Shown: piece by piece, positions 1-18,068 of the stretch
Numbering within the stretch: position 1 is the first letter of the stretch
Layout of the letters: each line of letters begins with the position of its first letter
From: a bacterium
GTDB taxonomy: Bacteria > SZUA-182 > DTGQ01
NCBI GenBank assembly: GCA_040752695.1
Contig: JBFMGO010000098.1
Coordinates: 1-23,030 of the forward strand
Reading direction: 5' to 3'
Length of the DNA stretch: 23,030 nt
Notes under the pieces: model-generated
Databases searched by the model: none
Told to the model about the DNA's origin: nothing
The model's input: only the letters and a program-made list of their open reading frames with translations
Made by a program: the position numbers and the translations under genes

Positions 1-1
1 G

Positions 2-1693
2 GTAATCCAAAGAGACATGCAGTCATTTTTCATGATCCTGCCAGCTATTGTGGGCGTATTCATTATGGTCTCTTTTCTGATTCTCTTCTTCTCGCTCAGT
101 CGCATGGTTCAGCAGGATATGGCCCAGTTGGGAACCTTGCTGGCCTTAGGGTACAGCCCGTTTCAGCTCTTTGGCGCTTATGTAATCGGAGGATCGATTT
201 TAGGACTGGCAGGATATTTCATCGGCTGTGCAGGATCAAACTCCCTGGCCAGCCTGGTGGTTAAAAGTTATATGTCCGGGACCGGACTTCCCTTGATGTT
301 CCGCTCCTATAACCGAATGTCTTTTCTGATCGCCTTTCTCTTCAGTCTTGCTGCGCCCATGATCGCTACCGCCCTCTCACTCATGCAGATCCGCAGAATG
401 AACGTAGCTGAAATGCTGGGAAGAACTATCGAAAAGCAATGGTCATGGTCATCATTATCGTCGTCATCATTATCATCATCGTTATGGTCATCGTCATGGT
501 TATCCGATGTCAGGAAAAAGCTGGCGGATAGTGCCCTTTTAGCGCCACTCATCGACCGCTGGAACCATTTGTTTGAGAGAGGAATTACCTTCAAGATCGG
601 AATGAGAAATTTATGGAGGAGAAAGGTCTTTTTCCTTCTATCCGCTTTCAGCATTGCCTTAGGCATTGCCCTGGCCGAATCCCTGTTAATTGCCGATGTA
701 TCGATCTATCGAACGATCGACAATTTTTTCACTATGGAAAAATGGGATTTGTTTATCCCTTTCAGTGGATCAGTGGAAAAGCAAAAGGTGGAAAAATTGA
801 AAGAGATCGAAGGGATAGCCGGGATCAGTTTGTATAAGAAGGGATTGGTTAACCTGCACTTGGGCGATGAGCGAAAGCCGTATCAGATAGCAGGAATTTC
901 CAGAGAAAATTCCCTGATTAAACCGGATGTTATTGAAGGAAGCTCTTTTTCATCCGATGATGCCAGGGAGATCATCCTCAATGCCGAGATGAAGGATCAG
1001 TACAACTTAAAAATAGGTGATTCGATAGACGTATGGACAGGGAATGAGCCTAAAGGCAGGCTCAAGCTCGTAGGAGTGATGAATAACTTTGTTGCCGGTC
1101 AGGCTTTTGTGCCTATGGGGGTTGCTCAGGACATGAGCGGGAGAAAGGACAGATTTACGGGAGTTTTCCTTGCTCTTTGTGCCCCTTTCGAGAAAATCAG
1201 AAGCAAAATCCAAAGACTGGATTTCACCGGCTATATAGTCCGCAAGGATGATGCCCGGGCTACTTTTCATATCAATATGAAGAAAATCTCGGTATTCCTT
1301 TACACCTACAGCCTGATAAGCCTTTTTCTCTCGATGTGCATCATTTTTGTTAACCTTTATCTTAACACCGTCTACCGGAAGGGAGAGTATGCCGTTCTCC
1401 TGGCCAATGGTTTTGGCCAAAGGGAGATAGGCTTGATGATCGTTTATGAGATTCTGGCAATCATGGTTATCGTAACTGCGGCAGCTATCCCTCTCAGTAT
1501 CATGATATCAAAGTATTTCTGTTACAAAATCGCCAAGGCGGCGGTTACGATCCATCTTCAGATCAGGCCGGTGGATTACCTGAAGGTATTTATCCCGATG
1601 TTGGTTCTCATGTCAGCAGTGGCCTGGTATTGCACCAGGTATGCAAGCAGTATCGACATAACCAGTACGATAAGGAACAGAATCAACGAATAA
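2..1693 (+). CDS. FtsX/MacB-like (LolE-type) ABC transporter permease, N-terminally truncated by the window edge
   Basis: The frame is open upstream of the ORF-track Met at 17 (GTA ATC CAA AGA GAC ATG). Two FtsX-type signatures (QLGTLLALGYS; EYAVLLANGFG), hydrophobic TM clusters, the RNLWRRK motif before the second half, and a periplasmic MacB-like domain (EIILN...YNLKIGDSI). Confidence 0.88.
   Translation, partial: VIQRDMQSFFMILPAIVGVFIMVSFLILFFSLSRMVQQDMAQLGTLLALGYSPFQLFGAYVIGGSILGLAGYFIGCAGSNSLASLVVKSYMSGTGLPLMFRSYNRMSFLIAFLFSLAAPMIATALSLMQIRRMNVAEMLGRTIEKQWSWSSLSSSSLSSSLWSSSWLSDVRKKLADSALLAPLIDRWNHLFERGITFKIGMRNLWRRKVFFLLSAFSIALGIALAESLLIADVSIYRTIDNFFTMEKWDLFIPFSGSVEKQKVEKLKEIEGIAGISLYKKGLVNLHLGDERKPYQIAGISRENSLIKPDVIEGSSFSSDDAREIILNAEMKDQYNLKIGDSIDVWTGNEPKGRLKLVGVMNNFVAGQAFVPMGVAQDMSGRKDRFTGVFLALCAPFEKIRSKIQRLDFTGYIVRKDDARATFHINMKKISVFLYTYSLISLFLSMCIIFVNLYLNTVYRKGEYAVLLANGFGQREIGLMIVYEILAIMVIVTAAAIPLSIMISKYFCYKIAKAAVTIHLQIRPVDYLKVFIPMLVLMSAVAWYCTRYASSIDITSTIRNRINE
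440..502 (+). repeat. Degenerate trinucleotide tract (TCA/TCG/TTA/TGG) encoding a Ser/Trp-rich linker in the permease
   Basis: tggtcatggtcatcattatcgtcgtcatcattatcatcatcgttatggtcatcgtcatgg encodes WSWSSLSSSSLSSSLWSSSW. Confidence 0.75.
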
Positions 1694-1749
1694 ACGAAGA
1701 GCAGGATGAATAATGAACAAACCAATAAACGCCTAGTAAGGAGGAAACG

Positions 1750-2397
1750 ATGGAGCCCAGGGAATTTCAATGGCCAATGAGCGTTCTGTACAGCAGGTTT
1801 TTTGCCAGAGCAATGGAACCAGCCTATGCCGAGGTTGCCCGCCAGGCTCCCATTCCACCCCAGGCGCAGGCCCTCCTTGACATAGGAGGTGCCGATGGCA
1901 GGCTTGCGCTTGCTCTGGCCAAACAGTACCCTCATCTGCCCCGGATAGTGACCGCGGATATTTCTCAGGATCTTGTAACCCGCGCTCAACGCAAGGCAAG
2001 GGAGCATGGGTTCAGTGAGCGGATTCACTCGGAAGTGCAGGATGTGCATAACCTGAATTACCCTGATGATTCTTTTGACGTGACCATGAGTTTTGGCTCC
2101 ATGCATCACTGGAGGGACCCCGTAACAGGGGTAAAGGAATTATGCCGCGTTCTTAAGCCTCAGGGCAAGCTGCTCATTTATGATGGCAACGATCGGCCAT
2201 CATTAAAGGACATGAAAAGGACAGTCTCCACGATTGAAGGATCTACTATCTGGACTGCCCTTGTCTACTGGATGGGAAGCAAAGATTTTCTTTCACGCGA
2301 TGAGATTACCGGGATCGTTCGGGATGCAGGCATCAAGTTTCTTTCAATCACCTGGAACGGACCTCTTTGTCTTATCGGAGGAACGAAAGAAGGGTAA
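1750..2397 (+). CDS. Class I SAM-dependent methyltransferase (Methyltransf_11/UbiE-like fold)
   Basis: Motif I variant LLDIGGADG, acidic TADIS at the end of beta2, QDVHNLNYPDDSFD, MHHWRDP, ELCRVLKPQGKLLIYD. Strong RBS AAGGAGG. Confidence 0.9.
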   Translation: MEPREFQWPMSVLYSRFFARAMEPAYAEVARQAPIPPQAQALLDIGGADGRLALALAKQYPHLPRIVTADISQDLVTRAQRKAREHGFSERIHSEVQDVHNLNYPDDSFDVTMSFGSMHHWRDPVTGVKELCRVLKPQGKLLIYDGNDRPSLKDMKRTVSTIEGSTIWTALVYWMGSKDFLSRDEITGIVRDAGIKFLSITWNGPLCLIGGTKEG

Positions 2398-2664
2398 ATT
2401 CTCCGGCTTCCGGCATCACCTGTCCAACATTTTTCCCCCTTATTATGCCCTCCATTGCGCCCTCTTGGATGTAATTGTTTTCTTATTGAGATGAGGTACA
2501 TTTTCTTATAGAAACCTCTTTCCAAGTCTTCTGTTATGTCGAACATACGTTAAATGAGCTGAGTTTCCTTGATAATGCCGATAATAATTCGTTGTCAGCT
2601 TTTGCGTAAAATTTTCAGTTTAGGAAACATTAAGTCAAAAATTTTAACTATGGACATGACTCTG

Positions 2665-4204
2665 ACACAGCAAGGATACTGCTTTTTTTGAACCAGCAGG
2701 AGTAAAAATGTTTGTCCAGCAGAAAAAATTTCTCAAGTTGGCTGAAAAGGACCGGATTCTTACCATTACCATAGATAATCCGCCGGGGAACAGACTTCAT
2801 CGTGAATTTTTTATGGAGCTTAACACCTGTCGTCATCTGCTCGCATCACCCGATATCGACCTTATTGTTTTCACCGGGCAGGGGGATACCTTTTCCAAAG
2901 GATTTGACCTGAACAGCATCAGTGACTGCACTGATCCTCAAAGTTTGAAAGAGGTTCTCATATATAGCAATGATGTCTTTACCTTTATCGAGAGTTTAAA
3001 CAAGCCCGTTATTGCTGCCATCAATGGCCATTGCCTTGGAGGGGGGATGGAATTGGCCCTCGTGTGTCACTTAAGGCTGTGCTCGGAAAAGGCCCGTCTG
3101 GGATTGCCTGAATTATCGGTTGGCATTATTCCGGGATTGGGAGGAGTCCACCGTCTGGCTATTTTGGTCGGCCGGGCCAAAGCCTTTGAGATGATTGCCC
3201 TGGGGGACGTAATCTCAGCTTCCGAAGCCTTAAGGATAAACCTGGTCAACAGAGTGCTCCCCAAAAAAGACTTTATGTCTGGTGTTCTGAAGATAGCCAG
3301 AACATTACTCATGGTGAACCAGAACCGGATGAGAGAAGTTATACAGCTTCTCAGGGATTTTACAACCAATGATGAACAGGAAAATATTAAAGCTGCCATA
3401 GCTTTTGCAAAAAATTCGCAATTGAAAAACGTTAAGTTAGCAACTTTGCATCCTTAGCAGTACTTTTTACACAGCAAAAGATACTACTTATTGAATCAGC
3501 GGGAGTGAAAAATGCTTGTTCAACAGAAAAAATTTTTAGAACTGACTGTAAAGGACCGGATACTGACAGTCACCATAGATAATCCGCCTGAAAATAAGCT
3601 CAATCATGAGATGTTTCTGGAGCTCGACACCTGCCGGGATATACTTTCGTCGCCTGACATTGACCTTGTGATCTTCACCGGTCAGGGGAATATCTTTTCC
3701 AAAGGATTCGATATGGATCTCATAAGAGCCTGCCCTGATTCCGGAACCATGAAAGAGCATCTGACCTTTATTCATGGAATCTACGCTCTTATCGGCAGCT
3801 TACCGAAGCCGGTTATTGCTGCCATCAATGGTCATTGCTTCGGAGGGGGATTGGAACTGGCTTTGGTATGCCACTTAAGACTGTGCTCGGAAAAGGCGCG
3901 CTTGGGACTGCCTGAATTGTCAAATGGCATTATCCCGGGGTTGGGAGGAATTCACCGTCTGGCTCACGTGGTTGGGCAGGCCAAAGCCTTCGAGATGATC
4001 GGCCTGGGGGATGTAATCTCAGCCTCCGAAGGCCTACGGATAGGCCTGGTCAATAGAGTGCTCCCAAAAGGAGGCTTTATGCCTGCTGCCCTCGCAATAG
4101 CCAAAACGCTCCTTATGGTGGACCAATACCGGATGAGAGAGGTTATGCAGCTTCTCAGGGACGCTCGCGTCAACAATGAGCAGGAAAATATTCAGGCTAT
4201 TATT
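2665..4204 (+). repeat. Tandem gene duplication (about 800-bp units starting at ~2665 and ~3469) including the 5' leader
   Basis: Leaders align: acacagcaaggatactgc...ttgaaccagcaggagtaaaaATG vs acacagcaaaagatactac...ttgaatcagcgggagtgaaaaATG. Coding sequences align to the NxEQENI motif. Confidence 0.85.
2708..3457 (+). CDS. Enoyl-CoA hydratase/isomerase (crotonase family), copy 1
   Basis: FSKGFDL oxyanion loop, KPVIAAINGHCLGGGMELAL (first catalytic Glu) and LGLPELSVGIIPGLGG (second catalytic Glu). RBS AGGAG. Confidence 0.92.
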   Translation: MFVQQKKFLKLAEKDRILTITIDNPPGNRLHREFFMELNTCRHLLASPDIDLIVFTGQGDTFSKGFDLNSISDCTDPQSLKEVLIYSNDVFTFIESLNKPVIAAINGHCLGGGMELALVCHLRLCSEKARLGLPELSVGIIPGLGGVHRLAILVGRAKAFEMIALGDVISASEALRINLVNRVLPKKDFMSGVLKIARTLLMVNQNRMREVIQLLRDFTTNDEQENIKAAIAFAKNSQLKNVKLATLHP

Positions 4205-4282
4205 GATAGCTTTGTCAATGTCTGTTTTGGGAGGAAGGAAAGGAGCGGCCTTGAGAATATTACTCGTCAATCCGCCGAATAG
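3512..4282 (+). CDS. Enoyl-CoA hydratase/isomerase (crotonase family), copy 2
   Basis: FSKGFDM, KPVIAAINGHCFGGGLELAL, LGLPELSNGIIPGLGG. Colinear with and highly similar to copy 1. Confidence 0.92.
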   Translation: MLVQQKKFLELTVKDRILTVTIDNPPENKLNHEMFLELDTCRDILSSPDIDLVIFTGQGNIFSKGFDMDLIRACPDSGTMKEHLTFIHGIYALIGSLPKPVIAAINGHCFGGGLELALVCHLRLCSEKARLGLPELSNGIIPGLGGIHRLAHVVGQAKAFEMIGLGDVISASEGLRIGLVNRVLPKGGFMPAALAIAKTLLMVDQYRMREVMQLLRDARVNNEQENIQAIIDSFVNVCFGRKERSGLENITRQSAE

Positions 4283-5633
4283 TGGAAGGAATATCATCGG
4301 GGAGAAGTATGGGGCGGAAATTATCCGTCAGGTGTTCCGGCAAGAACCCCTCTCTTTAGAGCTTCTGGCCGGTATGGTAAGCTCCGAGACGGTTGATATC
4401 TTCGATATGAAGGCCGACACCGCTACTCCCTATGAGAAAAAATTATCGGATTTCCAGCCCGACCTGGTAGGCGTAACCTGCATGACCTGTGAGGCGAAGA
4501 CCGCACTCAGGATCATGGAGATAACAAAGGAATACCATCCTCACATCACTACGGTTGTCGGTGGTGTACATGCGAGCAACGATCCTGAGTTTTTCAATCA
4601 CCCTTTTGTGGACTACCTTGTCGTGGGGCTCGGGAAAAAAACCTTCTCGGATCTTGTTCAAGGGATCAAGGAGAAAAAAGACGTCAGGCAGATACCGGGT
4701 GTAGGAAGTTTTAGTAATGGCAAATTTCAACTTCTTGCCAGAAAGTTCCAATACGAGGATTTGGCAGACGATATTCCCCCCAATAAAAATCTGGTAAAAA
4801 AATACCGGCCATTCTACCGACTTGGTAATATGAAAATAAATGTCGGGGCAGTAGATACATCTTATGGATGCACGAATAAATGCAATTTTTGCTGCCTGTG
4901 GAAGACCACCCAGGGCAAGTATTTAGCCAGAAAGTCAGAAACGATTGTCAGGGATATCGAGTTATCAAAGGATGATTATTTTATCCGGCTGGTGGATGCA
5001 AATACCTTCGGAGATAAGAGAAGGGCTGAAGAAATTGCCTCACTGGTGGCTCAAAAAGAAATTAATAAGGTGTTTATTGTCGATGCACGGGCAGATACCA
5101 TCGTCAGTCACCCTGAACTCATCCGCCTCTGGAGCAGGATCGGACTACGGGCGGTAGTCATTGGCCTCGAAGAAATCAGCGACAGGCATCTTACGGATTT
5201 TAACAAGAGAACTTCCCTGACGATGAACACGGAGGCCATCAGGATACTTCATGATAATGGCGTTATGATCATCGGGGATTTTATCGTTTCTCCGGATTAC
5301 GATGAGAAGGATTTCGATAATCTCAAAAATTATGTAAAACAAAATAAAATAGAATCGCCCGGGTTTTCAGTCCTGACTCCCATGCCGGGGACAGCACTGT
5401 ACGAGCAGATGAAAGATCAAATCATCATCAAGGATCTGGACTATTACACGCTTACCAATGCGGTTCTCCCTACGGCTATGCCCGAGGAGAAGTTTTACGA
5501 AAGAGTCGGTGATTTATATAGGGAATTTCATGCTCATTCATTGCCCAAGCAATTACTGTCTCAGTTATTCTTGCGTGAATCCTTTATCAAAGCAGGGGAA
5601 TTACTGAAGAGAAAATTTTCTAAAAGTGATTAA
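4251..5633 (+). CDS. Cobalamin (B12)-binding radical SAM protein (class B methyltransferase-like, HpnR-like N-terminus)
   Basis: CxxxCxxC motif GCTNKCNFC. N-terminal B12-binding Rossmann features: RILLVNPP, EPLSLELLAG, PDLVGVTCMT, TVVGGVHAS. C-terminal FSVLTPMPGTALY. Start re-called to TTG 4251 (in frame with the 4176 ORF) after RBS AGGAAAGGAG. Confidence 0.92.
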   Translation: MRILLVNPPNSGRNIIGEKYGAEIIRQVFRQEPLSLELLAGMVSSETVDIFDMKADTATPYEKKLSDFQPDLVGVTCMTCEAKTALRIMEITKEYHPHITTVVGGVHASNDPEFFNHPFVDYLVVGLGKKTFSDLVQGIKEKKDVRQIPGVGSFSNGKFQLLARKFQYEDLADDIPPNKNLVKKYRPFYRLGNMKINVGAVDTSYGCTNKCNFCCLWKTTQGKYLARKSETIVRDIELSKDDYFIRLVDANTFGDKRRAEEIASLVAQKEINKVFIVDARADTIVSHPELIRLWSRIGLRAVVIGLEEISDRHLTDFNKRTSLTMNTEAIRILHDNGVMIIGDFIVSPDYDEKDFDNLKNYVKQNKIESPGFSVLTPMPGTALYEQMKDQIIIKDLDYYTLTNAVLPTAMPEEKFYERVGDLYREFHAHSLPKQLLSQLFLRESFIKAGELLKRKFSKSD

Positions 5634-5688
5634 ATATTGAGCCTTTTGATTAGCAACATCGATATACAACATGTGAGGAGAAAAAAAG

Positions 5689-6024
5689 ATGCAAAAAATA
5701 CTTACTGATGAGGAGAAAAAGATCATTTATGAAGAAGTGCGAGAGATACTGTCTGATGAGTTGGGGGTTGACCTCGATAAAATTGATCCGGATACGAAAA
5801 TCATCGATGATCTGGGAGGAGACTCGTTAATTTATCTCGAATTAATCGAAGAGTTTAAGAAGAAATACGGGTTTAACCTCGAGGTCAGGGTCATTGGTCA
5901 ATACATTCTGGCACATCCTGTTTATACGGTGGAAGAGACAGCTAAAGCCATTTATGACATTATCGAAAGAGGCGAAGAGCTGGTAGGGGGAGCCGAACTG
6001 GTGGGAGGAATAGAATTGGCATGA
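5689..6024 (+). CDS. Acyl carrier protein (atypical, C-terminally extended)
   Basis: Acidic 111-aa protein with DLGGDSL phosphopantetheine site (Ser codon 5824-5826). RBS GAGGAG. ATGA overlap with the ketosynthase. Confidence 0.9.
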   Translation: MQKILTDEEKKIIYEEVREILSDELGVDLDKIDPDTKIIDDLGGDSLIYLELIEEFKKKYGFNLEVRVIGQYILAHPVYTVEETAKAIYDIIERGEELVGGAELVGGIELA

Positions 6025-7262
6025 ACAGTGTAAGCAACAACGCGGTAGCCATAACCGGTATTGGTATGATAAGCCCGCTGGGAGTGAATGCACCTCTGTG
6101 CTGGAAAAACATGGTCGCAGGGAAACCGGGAATAACCTGGATTACCTCTTTTGATACGAGCCAATGTATAACCAGGATAGGTGGAGAACTGCCCCCGGAA
6201 TATTACGAACTGGAAAAGAAGGAATTTCCAAAGAGACTTCGCAAACAAACCACCTCGGCATCCCGGATAGGATTACTCTGCGCTCAAGAAGCCATTGCGG
6301 ACAGCGGGCTGGAAGTGAAAAAGCTCGATCCCTACCGGTGTGCAGTCATTACCGGATCGGGCGGATCGAGTTTTCAATCCGGCAGAGACGAGCAAGACTC
6401 GGATGACAATAAATTCGTGGTCTTGCGAGAAATGGTCAATGCAGCTTCTGCCTGGATATCGATCCACTATGGCTTCAAGGGACCTTCGTTTAATATCGCT
6501 ACTGCCTGCGCCTCTGGCGGCCATGCTGTGGGAGCTGCCTGTGATTACATACGGTCAGGGAGAGGCGACCTGGCCGTAGCTGTAGGTATGGATGCCATGC
6601 TGACCCGAAAGAGCATCAATGGATTTAACCAATTACACGCACTGAGCGAAGAAAATACCTTTCCGGAGAAGGCGAGCCGACCCTTCGACCGCAAAAGAGG
6701 TGGGTTTGTTCTGGCCAACGGAGGAAGTGCCATTATTCTGGAAAACCTGGATATGGCACGCAAGCGGGGGGCCAGAATCTACAGCCTGATCTCAGGCTAC
6801 GGTATAAGCTCCGAGGCATTCAATATCATGTCTCCTGAACCAAGCGGGAAGGAAATGGCCAAAACCATTGATCTGGCTTTGAAGGATTCAAGGATTCCCA
6901 AAGAAAAGATTGGCTATATCAATGCCCACGGCACTTCGACTCATCACAATGACCTTTGTGAAACCATAGCCATAAAGACGATCTTCAAGGATGACGCTTA
7001 CCGACTGGCCATCAGTTCGCAAAAGTCCATGATCGGCCACACGATCGGAGCTGCCGGGGTCATCGAATGTGCAGTTACTGCCCTTTCTCTTTATCATGGG
7101 ATCATTCCTCCCACCATCAATCATGAGGAGCCCGATCCTGAATGCGACCTTGATTATGTACCGAATGAAGCCAGGGAGGTTAACAATCTGGAGGCAGCCA
7201 TGAGCAACTCGTTTGGATTTGGCGGACACAACTGTTCACTGGTATTAGAGAGGCACTCATGA
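6021..7262 (+). CDS. fabF: Beta-ketoacyl-ACP synthase II (FabF-type ketosynthase)
   Basis: VAITGIGMISPLG. Intact Cys-His-His triad: TACASG, NAHGTST, KSMIGHTIGAAG. Also SRPFDRKRGGFV and SNSFGFGGHN. Probably a pathway-specific paralogue rather than the housekeeping copy. Confidence 0.93.
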   Translation: MNSVSNNAVAITGIGMISPLGVNAPLCWKNMVAGKPGITWITSFDTSQCITRIGGELPPEYYELEKKEFPKRLRKQTTSASRIGLLCAQEAIADSGLEVKKLDPYRCAVITGSGGSSFQSGRDEQDSDDNKFVVLREMVNAASAWISIHYGFKGPSFNIATACASGGHAVGAACDYIRSGRGDLAVAVGMDAMLTRKSINGFNQLHALSEENTFPEKASRPFDRKRGGFVLANGGSAIILENLDMARKRGARIYSLISGYGISSEAFNIMSPEPSGKEMAKTIDLALKDSRIPKEKIGYINAHGTSTHHNDLCETIAIKTIFKDDAYRLAISSQKSMIGHTIGAAGVIECAVTALSLYHGIIPPTINHEEPDPECDLDYVPNEAREVNNLEAAMSNSFGFGGHNCSLVLERHS

Positions 7263-7906
7263 AAAGTCAGGACTCAAAGGATCTCAAGGAAATCATCTAC
7301 GGCCGCAGCAGCGTCAGGAAATTTTCTGACAAACCGGTACCAGAAGAGCTTTTGTATGAGGTAATCGATGCGGGGCGAATGTCACCCTCACCGACCAACA
7401 GTCAACCCTGGTATTTTTCCATCTTTTCCAAAGAGGACAAACACGGGATAAGTGAGATTTTATATGAGGAAGCACAAAGATTAGAAGTACCCGGGACGAG
7501 AGATATTGTCTTTGAGGCTGCTAAAATCACGGCTTCTGCTCCTCTTGTCATTACTGCCTGGAACATGAAGCACTTTTCGAACCGATTGAGAAAAATCGAG
7601 GGATTGATCGGAGACGATTTTCGCAGAAACTACGAACGGGCCGAACTGGTATCCATCGGCTGTGCAGTGCAAAATATGTGGCTCATGGCCCATGCCCTGG
7701 GGCTGGGAATGGTCTGGCTCATGGCTACTTTGCGTACTTCCGAGGAATGCAGTAAAAAGTTCGGCCTTCAGGGGGAACTCGTAGCCTATCTGCCGATAGG
7801 CTATCCTCTGGATAGTAATACTGCGGTAAAAAAGAGGAGAAAGTCACTTTCGGACATTTGCAGTTTTTACTCGTCAAGGGAGGAGGAGATTCACGCCCAT
7901 GGGTAA
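7259..7906 (+). CDS. Nitroreductase-family FMN-dependent oxidoreductase
   Basis: GRSSVRKFSDKPV, SPSPTNSQPWYF, GCAVQNMWLMAHALGLGMVW, LPIGYP. ATGA overlap with the fabF stop. Confidence 0.9.
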   Translation: MKSQDSKDLKEIIYGRSSVRKFSDKPVPEELLYEVIDAGRMSPSPTNSQPWYFSIFSKEDKHGISEILYEEAQRLEVPGTRDIVFEAAKITASAPLVITAWNMKHFSNRLRKIEGLIGDDFRRNYERAELVSIGCAVQNMWLMAHALGLGMVWLMATLRTSEECSKKFGLQGELVAYLPIGYPLDSNTAVKKRRKSLSDICSFYSSREEEIHAHG

Positions 7907-8816
7907 AGGAGAGCTCACGATTCCTCTCAAAAGGAAAAGGGCAGTGCATTCCAGACGGCCACACGGACTGCTCTTCATTATCCCCCTTTTGCTGCTCTTT
8001 TCCACTCATCCTGATGCAGCTCATTCTGCACTCCAGAGTAAGGGACAGGAGCAGCAAAAGAGAGAAACCGGGAATAAGGACCAGATCGACGATCCCTTCA
8101 AAAAAGGGCGCTCGATTATGGAGGAAGTGGAAAGAAGGGCCAAATCGGTGTCCGAGCATCTTTTTCTGACCATGATTATCCGCGACAGCGCTGGTAAGGA
8201 AAGAAAGCGGGCACTTGAAGTATGGAATGAATATAACCAGGATGGAAGGCGAAAAAATCTCATGCGCTTTACCAGCCCTCAGATGGTCAGAAATACGGGG
8301 TTACTCTCCCTGGAAAGAGAAGCGGGAGAGGATGACCAGTGGCTGTACCTGCCTATCTTGCGCAAAAGCAAGCGAATAGCAGCTTCGGCCAAGACCAATG
8401 AGTTTGTCGGAACGGATTTTACCTTCGAGGATTTGAGCGCTGAAAATATCGACGATTTCAAATACGAATTCCAGGGGGAACAGGAAACCGGCGGCCATAC
8501 CTGCTTCGTGGTCAAGGCCATACCCCTCGAGAGCAGGGCGAAAAGCACAGGCTACAGTGAGCGGATTATCTTTATCAGAAAGGATATCTACGCTCCTGTC
8601 ATGATCCAGCATTACGATTGGGATGGCAAATTCTATAAAAAATGGCTGGCCTCTGATCTGGTTCATGTCAAAGACGAATGCTGGCGGGCTAATCGTGAAG
8701 AGATGATTAAGGTCATAGAGAACAAGTGCACTATTCTCCTGATCGACAGGCGCATATCCAGTGATACCCTGGATAATGCCATTTTTACACAGCGGGAATT
8801 AACGAAAGAATACTAA
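7899..8816 (+). CDS. Outer-membrane lipoprotein-sorting (LolA-like) periplasmic protein
   Basis: N-terminal basic/hydrophobic signal-like segment. Family-typical motifs MRFTSP...RNTGLL, EDDQWLYLPILRKSKRIA, FVGTDFTFEDL, TGYS and C-terminal FTQREL. Confidence 0.85.
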   Translation: MGKGELTIPLKRKRAVHSRRPHGLLFIIPLLLLFSTHPDAAHSALQSKGQEQQKRETGNKDQIDDPFKKGRSIMEEVERRAKSVSEHLFLTMIIRDSAGKERKRALEVWNEYNQDGRRKNLMRFTSPQMVRNTGLLSLEREAGEDDQWLYLPILRKSKRIAASAKTNEFVGTDFTFEDLSAENIDDFKYEFQGEQETGGHTCFVVKAIPLESRAKSTGYSERIIFIRKDIYAPVMIQHYDWDGKFYKKWLASDLVHVKDECWRANREEMIKVIENKCTILLIDRRISSDTLDNAIFTQRELTKEY

Positions 8817-8867
8817 GGGGAAAGGGAAGAGACGGAAAATGTTTTTCAACCCGGATTCTCAATACAA

Positions 8868-10172
8868 ATGACTGGTAAAAAAAACTTCATCATCATAACT
8901 ATATTTCTCATATCGGCTTTTCTTCTCCCCTGGTATCAAAAAGGTGTCCAATGCGCTCCTTTCGGAACCTTCGATATCAATATCCTTGGAAGGGGCTACG
9001 CTTACTTCCAGCCTGCCCCTGGTGAGGAAAAAGAAACCCTCGGAGAGACAAAGATTAACCTGACCTACAGCAATACTTTCCGTAAGGGCTTGTTTTTTAA
9101 GTTATCATCTCGTTTGCAAATTGATACGGACCAACAGTCCGAAGGCGCTCTTGACAGCTACAAGGATAACGACCGGAAAAGGAAGATATTCGATGTCAAC
9201 GAGGGTTTCATAGAACATCGTCTGGGAAGGTTTGATTATTTTCTGGGCAAGAGAATACTCTCCTGGGGAAAAGGAGATCATTTTAACCTCTCCGATAAAA
9301 TCAATCCGAAAGATTACACGGATTTCCTTGATAATGAAAAGATGGGGATACTTTTAGCCGGGGTTAAGCTCTACCCTACCAGGAATTCTCAGTTAGAGGC
9401 GTGTCTCATACCGTTTTTTACCCGAAGCAGAATCCAGTTCTCCGATTCCCGCTGGGCACCATGCGGCCAGGGGTTTCGAATCGAAGAGGATATACCCGAT
9501 GATGCCATGCAATATGCCTCCCGGTACTCACTCTACCTGAACAACCTGGATATCGATGTGACCTACATGAGGAAGACAGAGGATCTGGCAACATGCCTGA
9601 TCGTTCCCACACCGATGATCGGCTCTCCCGACCTGTACGGGCCTCCCGGCCTGGTTGCACAATACCGGAAGATGAACCTCTTTTCAATAGAAGGGGCAAC
9701 GACTATGGCCGATCAGTTCGAATTACATGCCGGAGCAGCGTACCACGATATCGATAAAAATGAACTATACGGCCAGTTTATCCAGTACCTGCTTGGCATA
9801 AATTATACACTTGAAGAAAAATTACCTTTCAGTAAAAGTGTCAAACTGATTGGCGAGTACCTGGGTGACATCGACATTAATAAGCCGGAGAATAAAAAAC
9901 TGATAGTTCTTGATTTTTCCCGTATTTTCGAAAATTCATTATTCATGCGGATAACCTCTAAACTGACCGATTTTTCGGATTTCCAGATAGGCAATCTTTT
10001 CTCTCTAGAAAAATCCTTTAATGATATCCTGCGCCTTGAGTATACCTATAACCCTAATGACAAGCTAGAATTCAAAGCAGGATTGGATTTAATCTGGGGA
10101 GACGACCAACTGATCTTCGAGCAGTTTGAAGAAAACGATCGAATGTGGATAAGTATTAAGTATTTATTTTAA
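8868..10172 (+). CDS. Probable outer-membrane beta-barrel protein (DUF1302-like)
   Basis: Signal peptide. GKRILSWGKGD...DKINP motif typical of barrels encoded next to LolA-like genes. Amphipathic strands and a terminal aromatic BAM-type signal (WISIKYLF). Confidence 0.75.
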   Translation: MTGKKNFIIITIFLISAFLLPWYQKGVQCAPFGTFDINILGRGYAYFQPAPGEEKETLGETKINLTYSNTFRKGLFFKLSSRLQIDTDQQSEGALDSYKDNDRKRKIFDVNEGFIEHRLGRFDYFLGKRILSWGKGDHFNLSDKINPKDYTDFLDNEKMGILLAGVKLYPTRNSQLEACLIPFFTRSRIQFSDSRWAPCGQGFRIEEDIPDDAMQYASRYSLYLNNLDIDVTYMRKTEDLATCLIVPTPMIGSPDLYGPPGLVAQYRKMNLFSIEGATTMADQFELHAGAAYHDIDKNELYGQFIQYLLGINYTLEEKLPFSKSVKLIGEYLGDIDINKPENKKLIVLDFSRIFENSLFMRITSKLTDFSDFQIGNLFSLEKSFNDILRLEYTYNPNDKLEFKAGLDLIWGDDQLIFEQFEENDRMWISIKYLF

Positions 10173-10183
10173 GAGGAAACATT

Positions 10184-11095
10184 ATGCAACCAGGAGCAGC
10201 ATTTCTCTTTCCAGGAAATGACATTGATTGCAAAGAGACACTGAAAAAATTACATGCAGAACAGACATTCAGGGAAAATCTCGGAAAGGTAAACGAGTTG
10301 GCCAGGACACTCGGCCATATCGGGTATCCCGGCCAGGATACCGACGCGGACAGCGGAGAGTCTTCCAGCAGCGAGTTATATAATCAAATGATGATCTATG
10401 CAATCTGCTGTTCGATGTGCGACCGTTATAAAAGAGAGCACATTTTCCCGGCAGCGGTTTCAGGCTACAGCCTGGGAATTTACAGCGCCCTGTATGCCGC
10501 TTCAGTATACAGCTTTGAAACCGGTCTATCCATTCTGGTGGAAGCCTTCAACCTGGTAAAACAGTTCTATGAGAATACAGGACAAAAATTCGGGATGGGA
10601 GCGATTATTGGCCTTACGGAACAGGAAATCCAGAATCTTGTCTTTCCAAAGATTAACGGTTTTCTAGAAATAGCCTGCCTGAACGGTCATCGAAGCTTCG
10701 TTATTGTTGGAGAGAGCAGAGCAATAACGGAAAGTCTGGAACTGGCTGCCAGATTAGGTGCCATGAGAACCATCCGGATTAACACGGGATTCGGGTATCA
10801 TACCTCTATTCTCAAGGAAAGCATTGAAAAGCTGTATGCCTTCATGGATCATTGCACAATCCTCGATCCGCAATGCAAAATCTTATCCCCCCTCCATCTG
10901 GGCCTGGTCAGGAAGGATACTGTTACCAACGAGATCGTGAAGAGTCTGCATTCTCCCGTCAATTGGAACTCCCTGGTGAATGTTATGGTCGATCGCCATG
11001 ACATTCGGGTAGGCTACGAGGTTGGACCTGGAGAATCATTAGCCAAGATGGCTCGCTATATTAACCAAAACCTGAAGGTTTACACTTTCTCATAA
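10184..11095 (+). CDS. FabD-like acyltransferase (atypical active site)
   Basis: AFLFPG, nucleophile motif GYSLG, IACLN, GYHTS (catalytic His), SPVNW, EVGPG. The canonical GQG Gln and malonyl-binding Arg are not conserved. Confidence 0.85.
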   Translation: MQPGAAFLFPGNDIDCKETLKKLHAEQTFRENLGKVNELARTLGHIGYPGQDTDADSGESSSSELYNQMMIYAICCSMCDRYKREHIFPAAVSGYSLGIYSALYAASVYSFETGLSILVEAFNLVKQFYENTGQKFGMGAIIGLTEQEIQNLVFPKINGFLEIACLNGHRSFVIVGESRAITESLELAARLGAMRTIRINTGFGYHTSILKESIEKLYAFMDHCTILDPQCKILSPLHLGLVRKDTVTNEIVKSLHSPVNWNSLVNVMVDRHDIRVGYEVGPGESLAKMARYINQNLKVYTFS

Positions 11096-11115
11096 GATTT
11101 ACACTTTCTGATAAG
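11079..11115 (+). repeat. 18-bp direct repeat (19-bp period) spanning the acyltransferase stop and the next RBS
   Basis: tttacactttctCataag (11079-11096) and tttacactttctGataag (11098-11115), one mismatch. Confidence 0.75.
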
Positions 11116-11127
11116 GATAGATTGCAG

Positions 11128-12291
11128 ATGAAAATAGGACTTGTCGGTTACGGTAAAATGGGAAAAGGCATTTTTAACCTGCTCTCGTCACTGGACCATG
11201 AAGTCATCGTCTGGATGAGAGATGAAAAGAAGGTAAAAGAAGCACAGAATCAAATAGACAGGAAGTTAAGGAGAGCTCTTAAAAATGGTATTGTCACCCA
11301 GGATCAGTTCCAGGAGAAAGTATCTTCCCTGACCTTCACCGACCGTATGGAGGATCTGGCTGGGTGCGATCTGGTCATCGAATCCGTTGCCGAGGATTTT
11401 CAAAAGAAACTGACCATACTTCAAAAACTCGAGTCCATCCTTTCTCCCCAGGCTCTACTCCTGACCAATACCTCTTCTCTTTCCATCAATAAACTGGCCG
11501 GGGAACTGAAAAGAAGTGAGCGCTTTTGCGGATTTCACTTTTTCTATCCTGTCCCTTTAGTCAATCTCATCGAGATTATAAAATGGGAAAACGTGTCGGC
11601 TGACGTAGTAAACTCACTGCGGGTTTTTGCCTATGCTCTTGGCAAGGAGCCGATCATCATCAATGATGCTCCCGCTTCGGGAATAAATGACATTTTAGCT
11701 TATTATTATTATGAGGGAGCCTACATACTGGAGCAGGGTCTGGCTGCTCCCTCGCTGGTAGATAAAGCCGCTCTCGGATTCAGCCGGGTTGGCCCCTGTG
11801 AATCCATGGACATTATCGGAATCAAGCTCATCATAGAGACTTCGGAAAGAACAGCCAATATGCGCAAAGAGGGTATGCTCATACCTGACCTGTTCTACAG
11901 GCTGATCTCAATGGACCGGTTAGGAAGAGACTGCGGAAAGGGTTTTTTTATTTACCGGGCAGAAAAAATGGAGGATGATGTCCGTGAATTTTATCTGAAC
12001 CCTCTTCAGAGGCATTCATATAGCAGCTCAAGTCAGGATAAATCGATACTGCCGAAAAGGCTGCTCTACTCACTATTCAATGGATTCTTGCATAGTGTAT
12101 CAAGAGGCATCTCTTCGCAGGCGGAACTGAATTGCGGGTTGAAAGAAGTGCTCGGTATGACCGCGGGTCCCTGGGATATGATGAAATCCATTGGCAAGGA
12201 TACGCTTGCCAGAGAATTTCGCTTCCTCGCCCAGCACGTAGGGCAAAGATTCGAGCAGGGGAGCGGGTCAGCCCTTGACAATTGCTTATGA
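11128..12291 (+). CDS. 3-hydroxyacyl-CoA dehydrogenase-family protein
   Basis: Rossmann GYGKMGKG, DLVIESVAED, TNTSSLSI, GFHFFYP (catalytic His), LIEII (Glu), LGRDCGKGFF, plus a second C-terminal helical repeat. ATG 11128 preferred over TTG 11122 on RBS spacing. Confidence 0.88.
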   Translation: MKIGLVGYGKMGKGIFNLLSSLDHEVIVWMRDEKKVKEAQNQIDRKLRRALKNGIVTQDQFQEKVSSLTFTDRMEDLAGCDLVIESVAEDFQKKLTILQKLESILSPQALLLTNTSSLSINKLAGELKRSERFCGFHFFYPVPLVNLIEIIKWENVSADVVNSLRVFAYALGKEPIIINDAPASGINDILAYYYYEGAYILEQGLAAPSLVDKAALGFSRVGPCESMDIIGIKLIIETSERTANMRKEGMLIPDLFYRLISMDRLGRDCGKGFFIYRAEKMEDDVREFYLNPLQRHSYSSSSQDKSILPKRLLYSLFNGFLHSVSRGISSQAELNCGLKEVLGMTAGPWDMMKSIGKDTLAREFRFLAQHVGQRFEQGSGSALDNCL

Positions 12292-12326: not shown

Positions 12327-15300
12327 TTAATCGAGGCAGGAAGGCTGCCCTAAATAGTACATAAACAGGCAGAGGGCATCTGCCGGAGTAACCTTGCCAT
12401 CCTGGTTTACGTCAGAGCAATCAGGACAGGCGCCTGAGCCGAGGTAGCACTTAAAAGCAGCCAGAGCGTCCGCGGGGGTAACCTTGCCATCCGCATTCAG
12501 ATCTCCGCTGCACACAGCCGATATGCAAAAACATCCGCCGCTCTTTGTGAACTGGGCAAAACCATCCTCTACATTTGCCAGCCCCAAGGGATAGCACTCA
12601 TTGTTCTGGCCGCCTTTTACCAGGAACTTCAGCCGGACAATCGAACCGCTTGCGCCTCTGGCAATACCCTGGCTGGTAAACAGCCCTCCTATTCTTATCG
12701 TGCCTGCACTCATAACCTTGACGTCAAAAAAGGTGGCATTCGTCATCAATTCGCCTTTTTCAAAGGTGGAATATTCCAGAATACCCGTATTGAAGGTAAC
12801 GTCAAAACCAAAGGAACTGACAGCCGAAGGTGCGGACTGAATCTTAACCGGTATCCAGACTTCACTTCCCGGCTTTCCCTTTGCCCCCTCGATGTCGAGA
12901 TTTCCTGAAGTGTTCTCCGTGCAGGTCTGTGAGCCGCAACTGTCTCCTCCCAGGCAATCGTCATCTTTGCCATTGCAGGGGATTTCCTGAGCTCCTGGAT
13001 GAACGTTTCTGTCCCCATCGTTGCAGTCGCTGTTATTCAAAACATAACCACTGGGAGTGGTGCAGCTTTGAGTGCTTCGTGAGGCATCGCCATAGCCATC
13101 CTGGTCCGCATCTGCATAAAAGGTTTGAGGCTGATTCGCGGTACAGCCGACCCACTGGCCATACTGGCAACTTTCCTCTCCCGTACCGCAGGACCCTGTG
13201 CATGGTCTGGTCAAACCCTCGTCCACCTGGCCGTTTTTATTGTTGTCCAGGCCGTCGCAGATTTCACCCTGACTCGATTGACACTCGCCTAAATGATCTA
13301 CATTCACACCCTGGCTTTGCGCCACACATGAATTGGAATAGGTTTTCCCGTCGCATCCGCAGACCGGACTGTAGAGCATAATGCACTGCTCGGGCAGGGG
13401 AGAGCAAACTCCCTGACCGTAGCACGCCCCAGTCTCTTTCTTGCAATAATCCTGAATCGAGCACTGGGAATTATCCATACAGACCTTATTGGAAGAGGAA
13501 TAGCTGCCAAAGGCATAGATCCTGCCATCCCTGCTGCCGATATAAATCGAACCATCAGCTCCGATGGCAGGTGAGGAATAAAAAGCGTCCCCTGCCTGGT
13601 AGCTCCACTTCTCGCTTCCATTGGCTGTCAGGGCATAGACTTTCTTATCCTGACTGCCCACATACACGGTGCCATCGGCACCAATGGCAGGAGTGGAACT
13701 AATGGCCCCGCCGGTCTGATAACCCCACCTGAAACTGCCGTCTTGCGCATTAAGAGCATAGAGCTTGCCGTCATTGCTGCCGATATACAGTTGCCCGTTG
13801 TTCCCCAGCGCAGGTGAGGAGTTGATCCACGATGAGGTCTGATACCGCCATTTGATCGTTCCGTTCGGCATAATGGCATAGACCTTGCCATCGAAACATC
13901 CGGTGTAGATTGTACCATCGGTTCCTATGGCAGGTGAGGATGCGATCCGGTCTCCAGTCACACAGCTCCACTTTATGCCTCCATCTTCGGGCTTAAGAGC
14001 ATAGAGCTTGCTGTCATGGCTGCCGACATAGACCGTACCGTCCGCTCCCATGGCCAGAGGTGAGTCAATCCGGTCGCCGAGTTTTTGGCTCCACTTCAGG
14101 CTGCCATCCGGGTTAACGGCTAATACTTTACCGCCAACGGTTCCGATATAAACCGCCCCATCAGCTCCTATAACCGGCGAAGAATAGATCTGGGTTCCCA
14201 GGATGGATGATGTCGGTTCCGCATAGGCCCACTTTTGGGTGCCGTTGGGGTTAAGGGCGTAGACTTTGCCGCTTTCGGTCCCGAAGTAGATGGTGCCGTC
14301 AGCAGCCAGGGCAGGTGAGGAGACGACCATGCTCCCGGTCTGATAAGCCCACTTTTGCGGGCCATTGGGATCGATGGCATACAAGTAGCCATCACAGCTT
14401 CCCACATAGACCGTGCCATCGGCTCCAATGGCCGGTGATGAGTCAACCCAGTAGCCTGTCTGGAAGGCCCATTTCAAATCGCCCGTTTGGGCGCCGGTAT
14501 AAGGGCTCTGGCCGCTGCGTCTTGAATCATATCCTTTCAAGGGCCAGGCTGCACCCTTGCCCGTGCACTCTCCCTCATGATCCACATTCACTCCCTGCCA
14601 GGCCGCATAGCACGAATTGGAATAGGTGATGCCGTCACATCCGCAGACAGGATTATAAACCGCAGGGCATTCTGCGGCCAAAGGAATGCACGATCCCTGG
14701 CCGGAGCAATTTCCAGCACCTTTCTGGCAATACTCATTTGATGAGCATTGTCCATTCACCGTACAGACAGGAGCACCAAAGGCGTACAGCGAGCCGTCCC
14801 TGCTGCCGACATAAATTGCGCCATCGGATCCTATGGCGGGGGAGGAATACACTTCACCGTTTGTCTGATAGCTCCATTTCGGACTGCCACCTTGCGCATT
14901 CAAGGCATAGATCCGGCCATCCCTGCTCCCGACATACACCGTACCGTCAGACCCTATCACCGGAGAGGAATCAACATTACCTGCGGTCTGATAGCTCCAC
15001 TTCGGATTGCCACTGGCACTGAGAGCGTAGATCTTGTCATCACCGCTGCCGATATAGATCGTGCCGTCATCGGCTATGGCAGGAGAGGAATAGATAGCGT
15101 CTCCAGTCTGACGATACCACCTCAGGCTGCCATCGGGATTGAAGGAATAGATCCTGCCATCCATGCTTCCGATATAGATCGTGCCATCGGTACTTATGGC
15201 AGGCGCAGAGCTGATCTTGTTCCCGGTCTGATAACGCCATTTCACGCTTCCATCTTCAGGCCGAAGAGCATAGATCCAATAGTCATGACTACCGATATAA

Positions 15301-17237
15301 ATGGTTCCGTCATTCCCTATGGCTGGCGGAGAATCTGCCCGATCGCCGAGTTTTTGGCTCCATTTCAGGCTGCCATCCGGCATAAAGGCCAAGACCTTGC
15401 CATCACTGACTCCGATGTAGACCGTACCGTCGGCTCCGACGACCGGCGAGGAATAAATCGCAGCCCCCATCTGGGAAGAATATGGCGGAAGCCCGGTATA
15501 AGCCCACTTTTGACCGCCGTTGGGACTGATGGCATAGACCCTGCCGCTTTCACTTCCGACATAGATGGTGCCATCGGCTCCTATGGCAGGCGAAGATATG
15601 ACCCTGCCCTGAGTCTGGAATCCCCATTTTTTATTTCCGCCTGCATCAATGGCGTAGAGCTGGCCATCATAGCTCCCCACATAGACAGTCCCATCAGCAC
15701 CTATAGCAGGCGAAGAGTCGATCGAATAGCCTGCCTGGCAGGTCCATCTCAAAGCATTGGTCTGTGCCCCCAAATAGGGACTCTGGCCGGAGCGCCGTGC
15801 ATTATACCCCTTGAGGGGCCACACACCCGCTCCTTGCGAAGGGCCGGGAAAGGTCGAGCATTCTCCGGTATGATTCACATTCACTCCGTGTGCCGCCGCA
15901 TCACAGGAATTTGCATAGGTGGCGCCATCGCACCCGCAGACAGGAGAATAGTCCATGGTGCACACGGATGACGGAAGACTGGCACATCTACCCTCTCCCT
16001 GGCAGTTGCCCGCACTTTTCTGGCAATATTCATTGGCCGAGCACTGGTCATCAGTAAGGCAAGGTTTGCTGGCAAAAGCATAGATCTTGGCATCCCTGCT
16101 TCCGAGATAAACCGTGCCGTCAGCTCCTATGGCCGGGGTTGCCCAAATATCGCCGCCGGTCTGATAGCTCCACTTCTGGCTGCCATCCTGGGCATTGAGG
16201 GCATAAACCATGTCATCATCGCTTCCGATGTAGACCGTGCCATCAGCTCCTATGGCCGGTGAGGAATGAACCGCTCCTCCGGTTTGAGATTTCCACTTCA
16301 GGTGGCCATCCGAACTCAGAGCATAGACCCAGCCATCGTTGCTTCCGGCATAGACCGTGCCATCGGCTCCTATAGCCGGAGAAGAATAGACGTCGGCATC
16401 TGTCTGATAGGCCCACTTCTGGGCGCCATCTTTGATGGCATAAATTTTGCCATCCATCTTTCCTTCCCGCCACCATCCGCCTCCGACATAAACGGTACCG
16501 TCCATTCCCACGGCCGGTGATGAATAAACGTAGAATGCCGTCTGGAAGCTCCACCTTACGGTGCCATCGGCTTTCAGGGCATAGACCTTGCCATCGAAAC
16601 TTCCAATGTAAACCGTTCCATCAGCTCCTATGGCAGGTGAGGAATGAATGCCGCTCCCGGTCTGGTAGACCCATTTCTGGGTGCCGTCTGGCTTCAGCGC
16701 ATATACCTTGTAATCAAGACTTCCGACGTAAATCGTGCCGTCAGCTCCTATGGCCGGCGAAGAAGAAACCCCGCCTCCGGTTTGAAAGCGCCATTTAAGG
16801 CTGCCATCCGGTTTGATGGCGTAGATTCTTCCATCATTGCTGCCAACGTAAACCGTACCATCGGCTCCCACGGCCGCAGTGGAATCGATACTGGAGCTGG
16901 TCTGATAGACCCATTTTGGACTGCTGGCCGAGCCAAAATCCGGGGCGAAAGCATAGATTTTACCATCGTTGCTTCCGACATAGACCGTGCCATCAGCAGC
17001 TATGACTGCCGAAGCATTGATCTTCTGGCCGGTCTGATAGCTCCACTTTACGCTATTGGCCTGTGATCCGATATACGCACTGCGCCCGGTGCGGCCCGGG
17101 TCATGCCCGCTGCATGGCCACGCACTGTCGGCCAGCCCCGCAGCGGAAACAGACGCAGCAGCAGACAGGATAAGAATACCCACACACCATACGGTTATTC
17201 CAATGAGGAAAAACTTCTTTAAGCTGTAACCTTTCAT
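12327..17237 (-). CDS. Large secreted multidomain protein: 3 x (PQQ-like 8-blade beta-propeller + Cys-rich/Kazal domain), MopE-like metal-binding repeats, cohesin, dockerin
   Basis: Signal peptide and RBS GGAGGAG. 24 repeats of [24 protein letters not shown]. Three Kazal motifs [29 protein letters not shown] and DADQDGYGD...DCND...[15 protein letters not shown] repeats. Cohesin-like V.IPVKI...[11 protein letters not shown]. Dockerin duplicated loops [15 protein letters not shown] / [14 protein letters not shown]. Confidence 0.9.
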
Positions 17238-17544: not shown

Positions 17545-18068
17545 TCCACGTATCAATGAGAATCTACTTAATCTATGAAGATCTATAATAAGAATACAAA
17601 GAAATTACCGGAACATTCAAGAAAAAGAGAAAATAGATAAGAAAAAAAATTGATAAGATAGAAAAGACGAAGACGCTGGAGCAGATAAAGAGCATCCCTT
17701 CGATCCCCCACGATTGGCTATTGTCATAAACGACGAAAGAAGGCAAGGATCTCTTACGTTTTCAAGAGGGTATTTAAAAAAATGCTACGCCGCAGAATTT
17801 ACGGCATAGCCTGTGAAATAAAAAGTGCGAATTCAAATATTGATTTTTGCATTTATGGGGGAACCCTATGAGTAAAGCATAAACAGGGAGACAGGAGTCC
17901 TTAAAATCCTGCCTCTGACATGAATTATCCCTTCTGGTGGGCTGTACGATCCGCACACTGCGGGTTAGGCTAACAGCAGCCTGTATTCACTTTACCTGGC
18001 TGATGCCCATGTGCATTGGCCGGATTTTTATTTTCCGGGCAGACATAAAGGCTACGAAGAGACTTGAA

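Follow-up and report, generated by a model that had tools for sequence, protein, structure and literature searches.

What is made by an operon that sets a dedicated acyl carrier protein (ACP) and ketosynthase (KS) beside a cobalamin (B12)-binding radical S-adenosylmethionine (SAM) enzyme, enzymes of beta-oxidation fold and genes for envelope transport, and which step does the radical SAM enzyme catalyse? The operon lies in a stretch of 23,030 nt that is the entire contig C98 of the bacterial genome G000 (hereafter the window). We propose, with about even confidence, that it makes and exports a dialkylresorcinol-type phenolic lipid and that the B12 radical SAM enzyme serves as aromatase in the place of DarA. 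As outlined in PMC6836626 and PMC13748660, DarB-type enzymes condense a 3-oxoacyl with a 2-enoyl thioester, and the resulting carboxy-cyclohexanedione is decarboxylated and aromatised by DarA. Observed directly were the content and order of the genes, the StlD-like fold of a divergent DarB/StlD-like ketosynthase at the operon head, here named KAS* (G000:C11:79580-80695), and the alternation of this clade of radical SAM enzymes with DarA. An earlier note on this DNA had the radical SAM enzyme tailoring a linear acyl chain; KAS* upstream and the alternation with DarA point instead to a head-to-head ring pathway, which is likely, and not to a ladderane-like chain modification. Among the three product options of that note, a cyclised chain comes closest to this reading, while methyl-branched and cross-linked chains are further from it.

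The twelve co-oriented genes described earlier were all confirmed as + strand open reading frames (2-12291), and the families assigned to them were borne out by Pfam and NCBIfam matches. The contig upstream, whose retrieval had been proposed, was C11; its end carries KAS*, an ATP-binding cassette (ABC) ATPase and the 5’ third of a permease. In G002, a genome of the same genus, permease residues 1-258 match the end of C11 and residues 261-803 the start of the window, and a metagenomic locus (L069) has the same 13 genes together with the same upstream neighbours as C11. Because the G002 permease spans both contig ends and L069 shares the upstream order, we assign the twelve genes, on sequence grounds, to the 3’ part of a 14-gene operon in G000; an exact overlap between the end of C11 and the start of the window was not found. 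In G002 the cluster lies inside a long contig and runs KAS III-like, ABC ATPase, permease, methyltransferase, crotonase, radical SAM, ACP, KS, nitroreductase, LolA-like, barrel, acyltransferase and 3-hydroxyacyl-thioester dehydrogenase (3HCDH). Recurrence of these 13 distinct genes in the same order in G002:C1 and L069, at 55-91% identity, indicates that the cluster is not a chance assembly and bears out the claim of a conserved unit. Of two further loci, L068 holds part of the cluster, and L070, at 44-68%, represents a more distant variant which kept the enzymes, with no transport genes in the stretch examined; it also holds a phosphopantetheinyl transferase gene, two KS genes, a SpoIIE-domain fragment and, at its end, a second, unrelated B12 radical SAM gene.

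The gene overlaps named earlier were found between ACP and KS (4 nt), KS and nitroreductase (4 nt) and nitroreductase and LolA-like gene (8 nt). The overlap of the second crotonase with the radical SAM gene also exists, its length being corrected to 32 nt given the likely start at TTG 4251. Between the methyltransferase and the first crotonase there is a gap of 310 nt. A promoter-like scan gave 26 versus 17.3+/-4.1 and a terminator-like scan 15 versus 13.9+/-3.6.

KAS* resembles the ring-forming ketosynthases in both sequence and fold. StlD was its top PDB match by sequence (E 7e-20) and, with a structure model at a predicted local distance difference test (pLDDT) value of 94, also its top fold match: the top six Foldseek rows were all StlD (template modelling (TM) score 0.88-0.89), followed by the tetronate-forming AbyA1. 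The best NCBIfam match was likewise the StlD/DarB family. KAS* keeps the active-site Cys and shares the DarB-type motif residues R/K189, W190, D194, Q254 and E356. Since N136, H251, Y325 and E356 are conserved even in distant members, the active site looks rewired rather than decayed. The family counts 346 proteins at E<=1e-20; the 90 representatives at E<=1e-30 in a 50% library may include DarB and other KAS III enzymes. No characterised member turned up in the searches made, and a scan of viral contigs gave no match. Homologues include those of the cultured Desulfatiglans anilini and Thiococcus pfennigii. KAS* was found in 1/401 Desulfobacterota, 5/401 Desulfobacterales and 4/122 genomes of the class to which G340 belongs.

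The radical SAM gene (4251..5633) most likely starts at TTG 4251, giving 460 aa as in database entry P0001. Its product has an N-terminal B12-binding domain (Pfam B12-binding, 62.7 bits, cut-off 32.1) and a CxxxCxxC radical SAM domain, in which C207/C211/C214 are invariant. TsrM, OxsB and MgmA are its top matching folds, and the fold search does not separate methylases from non-methylases. The nearest relatives, 44-51% identical, form a sister clade with a support of 100 in the Shimodaira-Hasegawa-like approximate likelihood ratio test (SH-aLRT), in a tree that left out L057, and their genes adjoin canonical darB directly upstream. We refer to the enzyme of the window and this sister clade together as the clade radical SAM. 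In 48/50 sister loci DarB starts <=0.9 kb 3’ of the radical SAM gene, and the other two end at a contig edge; the DarA profile had no match in any of these 50 loci, nor was a nitroreductase matched in the radical SAM-darB loci L016-L065. Two of these loci, L018 and L023, come from Desulfuromusa kysingii DSM 7343 and Geothermobacter hydrogeniphilus HR-1, respectively. G000 itself has such a pair in a second cluster (G000:C43:1-7000), where a clade radical SAM gene lies directly upstream of a canonical DarB that passes NF005293 at 551 bits. There, a hypothetical gene and a BtrH-like gene follow 3’ of DarB as in the arcuflavin dar cluster, and an ACP gene and two KS-like genes lie on the opposite strand. 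According to parts of PMC3949708, darA of the arcuflavin cluster occupies the slot held by the radical SAM gene in the otherwise similar dar cluster. DarB-type enzymes and clade radical SAMs occur in equal number, two of each kind in G000 and in G002 and one of each in G004.

Alternation with DarA was seen beside both kinds of ketosynthase. For canonical DarB, one sample of 301 Desulfobacterota genomes was searched three times; it includes the seed genome G041, chosen for its radical SAM enzyme. Of the 22 genomes with darB, 12 have DarA and 10 the clade radical SAM, none having both or neither. DarA is adjacent to darB in 11 of the 12, the remaining case being a contig-edge fragment, and the clade radical SAM adjoins darB in 10/10, at a distance of 10-175 nt. 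Scoring covered 5-7 candidates per genome, so that misses are possible, and thresholds were placed at visible gaps after the results were seen. They excluded 22 genomes in which the best radical SAM match had 33-38% identity and E 1e-84 or weaker, and six weak DarA-profile matches (G265, G323, G215, G304, G107 and G103; E 1e-12 to 3e-16, about 200/311 positions or fewer), one of which lies 1.35 Mb away from darB in a genome of the radical SAM-darB type.

For KAS*, the clade radical SAM is present and DarA absent in G000 and G002, and DarA was not found in G000 or 19 other genomes of its phylum. Conversely, all five Desulfobacterales genomes with KAS* (401 scanned) encode DarA, four in the KAS* locus and one on another contig. 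All five loci combine KAS* with a crotonase, an ACP and a cluster-type KS, four have the acyltransferase and three 3HCDH, and four hold FabI together with DarA; radical SAM and nitroreductase genes were not found in them. DarA of these sister clusters was identified by Atlas (score 0.97, TM 0.96), with no NCBIfam or Pfam match to DarA at the thresholds used. Since neither canonical DarB nor a clade radical SAM was found in the five draft genomes, KAS* is the only visible partner of DarA there. The window adds the second swap event, in an unrelated cluster architecture.

In four of these Desulfobacterales clusters (L106/L157, L107, L109/L159 and L110/L160) DarA and FabI are accompanied by sulfotransferases. 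Three of the four have DpgA flanked by two crotonases, directly 3’ of the acyltransferase; DpgA in L109 scores 453.9 bits over a cut-off of 425. For the DpgA-bearing clusters, this gene content suggests that the starter is dihydroxyphenylacetyl and the product a sulfated bis-resorcinol. On a Streptomyces plasmid (L114:4565-12855), ACP, KAS III, a DarA homologue, FabF and a P450 occur in one run, possibly an unannotated resorcinol cluster.

The other enzymes of the operon, all encoded on the + strand, can be arranged around such a ring. The FabD-fold acyltransferase (10184..11095) keeps the catalytic Ser and His. FabD binds malonyl through an Arg which is replaced by Ala or Val in 4/4 radical-SAM-type loci and is also absent from 3/3 DarA-type loci aligned. 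Its lack in every cluster acyltransferase aligned points to a non-malonyl acyl donor, and the enzyme is predicted to charge the ACP from a non-carboxylated acyl-CoA; its position directly 5’ of the DpgA module in three sister clusters fits starter loading. As neither DpgA nor a close FabI was found in G000, an aliphatic starter is likely there, and the nitroreductase may replace FabI. The dedicated ACP (5689..6024; PP-binding, 44.7 bits) has a conserved attachment Ser, and in L070 the phosphopantetheinyl transferase gene lies directly 5’ of the ACP gene. The FabF-type elongating KS (6021..7262; NF005589, 420.9 bits, cut-off 387) has an intact Cys-His-His set; its identity is 42% with the housekeeping FabF and 49-58% with the KS enzymes of DarA-type sister clusters.

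FabG and FabZ were not found in the operon, which has 3HCDH (11122..12291; 3HCDH_N, 161 bits) and two crotonases instead. 3HCDH keeps its His-Glu pair, occurs in 7/10 core clusters, the three misses being contig-limited, and is predicted to interconvert 3-oxoacyl and 3-hydroxyacyl thioesters, on ACP or CoA. Crotonase copy 1 (2708..3457; ECH_1, 140 bits), with an altered C-terminus, and copy 2 (3512..4282; ECH_1, 136 bits) show 71% protein identity and, over 732 nt, 76% DNA identity. Given that G002, L069 and L070 have a single crotonase, we regard the pair, from sequence comparison, as a local tandem duplication. Copy 1 keeps both catalytic Glu positions. Copy 2 has an orthologue in all 10 core clusters examined and is predicted to supply the 2-enoyl thioester. 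3HCDH and crotonase could thereby supply exactly the two substrates of DarB.

In the pathway that we propose, the acyltransferase would load a plain acyl-CoA on the ACP and the FabF-type KS would extend it to a 3-oxoacyl thioester, part of which 3HCDH and crotonase, in place of FabG/FabZ, would convert to the 2-enoyl thioester, so that both substrates required by DarB-type enzymes become available. KAS*, with its rewired site, would join them head-to-head into a carboxy-cyclohexanedione. Hydrogen abstraction by the B12 radical SAM enzyme, at the ring carbon beta to the carboxylate, would follow; the ring would then lose one electron and CO2 to become the resorcinol, a step taken by DarA elsewhere. 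Precedents are oxidative decarboxylation by the radical SAM enzymes CgdH/AhbD, as described in parts of PMC10114771, and non-methylating oxidation by the B12-dependent BchE, as described in parts of PMC13598231. By analogy with them, catalysis of the DarA step is the most economical role for the radical SAM enzyme, and one that we consider as probable as all other roles together. A second route in its full form, with beta-oxidation enzymes acting on ACP, KAS* using a new catalytic set and a non-methylating radical SAM aromatase, is put forward more tentatively.

Two further enzymes may act on this pathway. The class I SAM methyltransferase (1750..2397; Methyltransf_11, 71.5 bits) is present in G000, G002 and L069 and was not found in L070 or DarA-type clusters at E 1e-6; it is predicted to be accessory and to decorate the ring product by O- or C-methylation. 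The nitroreductase-family flavoprotein (7259..7906; Pfam, 104 bits) occurs in 5/5 radical-SAM-type loci and 0/5 DarA-type sets. Its top PDB relatives are generic nitroreductases, and it may be an enoyl reductase replacing FabI, a redox partner of the radical SAM enzyme, or an oxidase.

The product would be moved to or across the outer membrane by the ABC permease, a LolA-like carrier and a barrel. The MacB/LolC-E-type permease (3’ two-thirds at 2..1693, 5’ end cut; Pfam FtsX, MacB_PCD) has a Ser-rich low-complexity insertion at about 430-490 of the window which is absent in G002. It is followed, within the operon, by the LolA-like periplasmic lipid carrier (7899..8816; PF17131, 158.7 bits) and a predicted outer-membrane beta-barrel of porin/DUF1302-like type (8868..10172), which had no Pfam match and whose Atlas structure neighbours are porin/DUF1302 clusters (TM 0.79-0.88). 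MacB/LolCDE-type permeases act in export or extraction, and their combination with a LolA-like carrier and a barrel suggests delivery to the outer membrane. In other bacteria, hydrophobic-compound uptake has been linked to DUF1302-type barrels.

Several observations weigh against a resorcinol pathway with a radical SAM aromatase. KAS* is only 21-25% identical to StlD/DarB and stays below the family cut-offs (139.1 versus 450 bits for NF005293, 106.4 versus 550 for NF053539). StlD His302/Asn337/Glu154, of which His302 was assigned from the PDB title of 5gk2 and Glu154 is presumably catalytic, are Asn/Tyr/Gln in all 11 KAS* rows, whereas 31 DarB rows keep His throughout and Asn and Glu nearly always; the wider counts are His to Asn 52/53, Asn to Tyr 53/53 and Glu to Gln 52/53. 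With these residues replaced, the KAS* reaction may differ from that of StlD/DarB. Moreover, KAS* occurs without the core and without either partner, DarA or clade radical SAM, in G005, G340, G856 and G874, the genomes with isolated KAS* that the DarA check covered (G852 was left out). In a quick tree of DarB, computed without L118, the change between DarA and radical SAM maps once to canonical DarB and once to KAS*, so that the alternation amounts to about two events instead of 22. A different end product would account for the mutual exclusion equally well. Nor does lack of oxygen explain the swap. G000 (96.6% complete) encodes an acetyl-CoA synthase, had no detectable haem-copper oxidase and is probably from an anaerobe, but DarA is common in Desulfobacterota (12 genomes) and the oxidase is absent also in 3/4 DarA-type genomes tested; an oxygen-independent replacement was therefore not adopted as the reason. 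Finally, the nitroreductase co-varies with the radical SAM enzyme in KAS* clusters and could be the oxidant, B12 radical SAM enzymes are predominantly methylases (parts of PMC13598231), and the best NCBIfam match of the enzyme is the methylase HpnR (179 bits, cut-off 650), with BchE second (149, cut-off 481).

From these last points a different role can be built within the same ring pathway. The radical SAM enzyme would methylate the cyclohexanedione or resorcinol, yielding a C-methylated, possibly non-aromatic ring lipid, and any aromatisation would be the task of the nitroreductase found in 5/5 radical-SAM-type loci. Most of the top folds (TsrM, MgmA, CysS, TokK) are methyltransferases, and a methylase acting on the same ring explains mutual exclusion almost as well as an aromatase does. 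However, the sister enzyme sits beside canonical darB with no nitroreductase and with no DarA in any of 50 loci, filling the slot that belongs to darA in a dar cluster otherwise resembling that of arcuflavin; occasional co-occurrence with DarA would be expected of a methylase, and both were found in 0/22 genomes; and the operon already has a separate SAM methyltransferase. We therefore judge a methylase unlikely, although it is the strongest of the competing explanations. Less probable still is that KAS* is no cyclohexanedione synthase and performs an acyl transfer, an ester or amide formation or a pyrone/tetronate-type condensation, while the radical SAM enzyme tailors an ACP-bound chain by a methyl branch, small ring or cross-link, a view close to that of the earlier note and held here to be improbable in this form. 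The replaced StlD residues, the conservation of N136, H251 and Y325 in distant members and AbyA1 as next fold match are in line with it, as is the more distant KAS* of G340 (L099/L100), which lies directly 3’ of a different, ladderane-type radical SAM gene (301.9 bits), with MMPL and LolA-like genes among its neighbours and no DarA in the genome. It is opposed by DarA in 5/5 Desulfobacterales KAS* genomes, all without canonical DarB, and by the sister position of the radical SAM enzyme to a darB-linked clade. The operon might instead serve to break down or take up a lipophilic substrate, with beta-oxidation enzymes, import through barrel and LolA-like protein and a stray fatty-acid synthesis pair. 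This would account for the folds of crotonase and 3HCDH and for the uptake link of DUF1302-type barrels; yet thiolase, acyl-CoA dehydrogenase and CoA ligase are absent from the operon, two phyla share the conserved association of ACP, KS, acyltransferase and KAS* with the beta-oxidation folds, and the permease belongs to a type of exporters or extractors, which leaves this explanation very improbable.

Several known systems were tried and rejected. A comparison with ladderane loci, drawn earlier, did not hold: TIGR04072 scored 45.3 bits versus a cut-off of 360, and the operon has neither a FabZ homologue nor a phytoene-desaturase-like gene. Like the anammox/Desulfotalea ladderane or polyunsaturated-hydrocarbon clusters, it brings B12 radical SAM, ACP and FabF together in an anaerobe, but its radical SAM enzyme is of a different family, and a term search of the main text of the ladderane paper (PMC2649909) found no mention of enoyl-CoA, hydroxyacyl-CoA or nitroreductase genes. 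Elsewhere in G000, a large separate cluster (C19:15000-62000) contains five or more B12 radical SAM genes alongside two KS genes, an ACP, an MMPL-like gene and two LolA-like genes; for two of these radical SAM genes the best match is to the ladderane type, at 221 and 308 bits against a cut-off of 360. Hopanoid methylation by HpnR was discarded on the score to TIGR04367 (179 versus 650) and because no squalene-hopene cyclase was found over cut-off in G000 (TIGR01507, best 34 bits versus 431). The enzyme shares with HpnR and BchE the B12-binding plus radical SAM architecture, whereas its gene context ties it to DarB-type ketosynthases. A polyketide beta-branching cassette was rejected, since KAS* scores 26.7 versus 244 to NF003274, the KS keeps its Cys and the ECH pair is a local duplicate. 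Housekeeping type II fatty acid synthesis (FAS II) was likewise rejected on the missing malonyl Arg, the lack of FabG in the locus and a separate fabD/fabG/fabF locus on contig C91 of G000, which upholds the earlier claim of a dedicated lipid pathway, conserved and distinct from housekeeping synthesis, that has an ACP and envelope transport of its own.

The closest known systems are darABC/StlCDE/BrtCD (Pseudomonas aurantiaca, Photorhabdus, Synechocystis salina and the Azoarcus arcuflavin cluster), with which the operon has in common an StlD-fold KAS III, a dedicated ACP, a linked lipid exporter, the need for 3-oxoacyl and 2-enoyl thioesters and true DarA homologues in sister clusters. It departs from darAB/StlCD in family score, catalytic residues and the lack of DarA, in addition to which it has a B12 radical SAM enzyme and a nitroreductase. 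Unlike Photorhabdus, which borrows FAS II enzymes according to parts of 10.1101/2022.10.20.513026, it has its own KS, Arg-less acyltransferase, 3HCDH and crotonase. CgdH (HemN) and AhbD resemble the radical SAM enzyme in the proposed chemistry of hydrogen abstraction, loss of CO2 and one electron and C=C formation; they act on tetrapyrroles and are not B12 enzymes, and the known likeness is this chemistry alone. In agreement with the earlier view that the gene set is not a recognised pathway, a literature search found no paper describing it or a radical SAM enzyme in the place of DarA, although figures and supplements of earlier dar studies may bear on this; the headings of a 2026 review of lipid-modifying radical SAM enzymes list no such enzyme (PMC13459092).

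Downstream of the operon, the - strand of the window (12327-17237) encodes a secreted protein of 1636 aa that combines PQQ-type beta-propellers and Kazal repeats with cohesin and dockerin domains; in G002 (L013), a gene resembling it lies after the cluster in convergent orientation. Short broken frames without Pfam or NCBIfam match follow on the same strand (17970-18444), which we take to resemble an IS1634-type transposase remnant. A further cluster, cut by the contig end, is probably represented by a sulfotransferase (18744-20030), which shares just 25% identity with one sulfotransferase of a sister cluster, and by a fatty acyl-AMP ligase-ACP fusion (20305-22851; 35% G+C); the G002 region examined showed neither of the two.

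If the proposed role of the radical SAM enzyme is correct, a testable reaction would be assigned to a widespread, uncharacterised B12 radical SAM clade, found in 10/301 sampled Desulfobacterota genomes, and a non-methylating reaction would be added to a class with few known. It would also bear on a gap named in an alkylresorcinol review, that of DarB homologues without aromatase whose products are unknown (PMC6836626). Should the second route with a rewired KAS* be true, the enzyme would be the first of the radical SAM class to aromatise a polyketide-type ring, which could be tested in cultured Desulfuromonadales, as these carry the sister radical SAM gene. For the organisms concerned, the proposed pathway would predict phenolic outer-membrane lipids in anaerobes.

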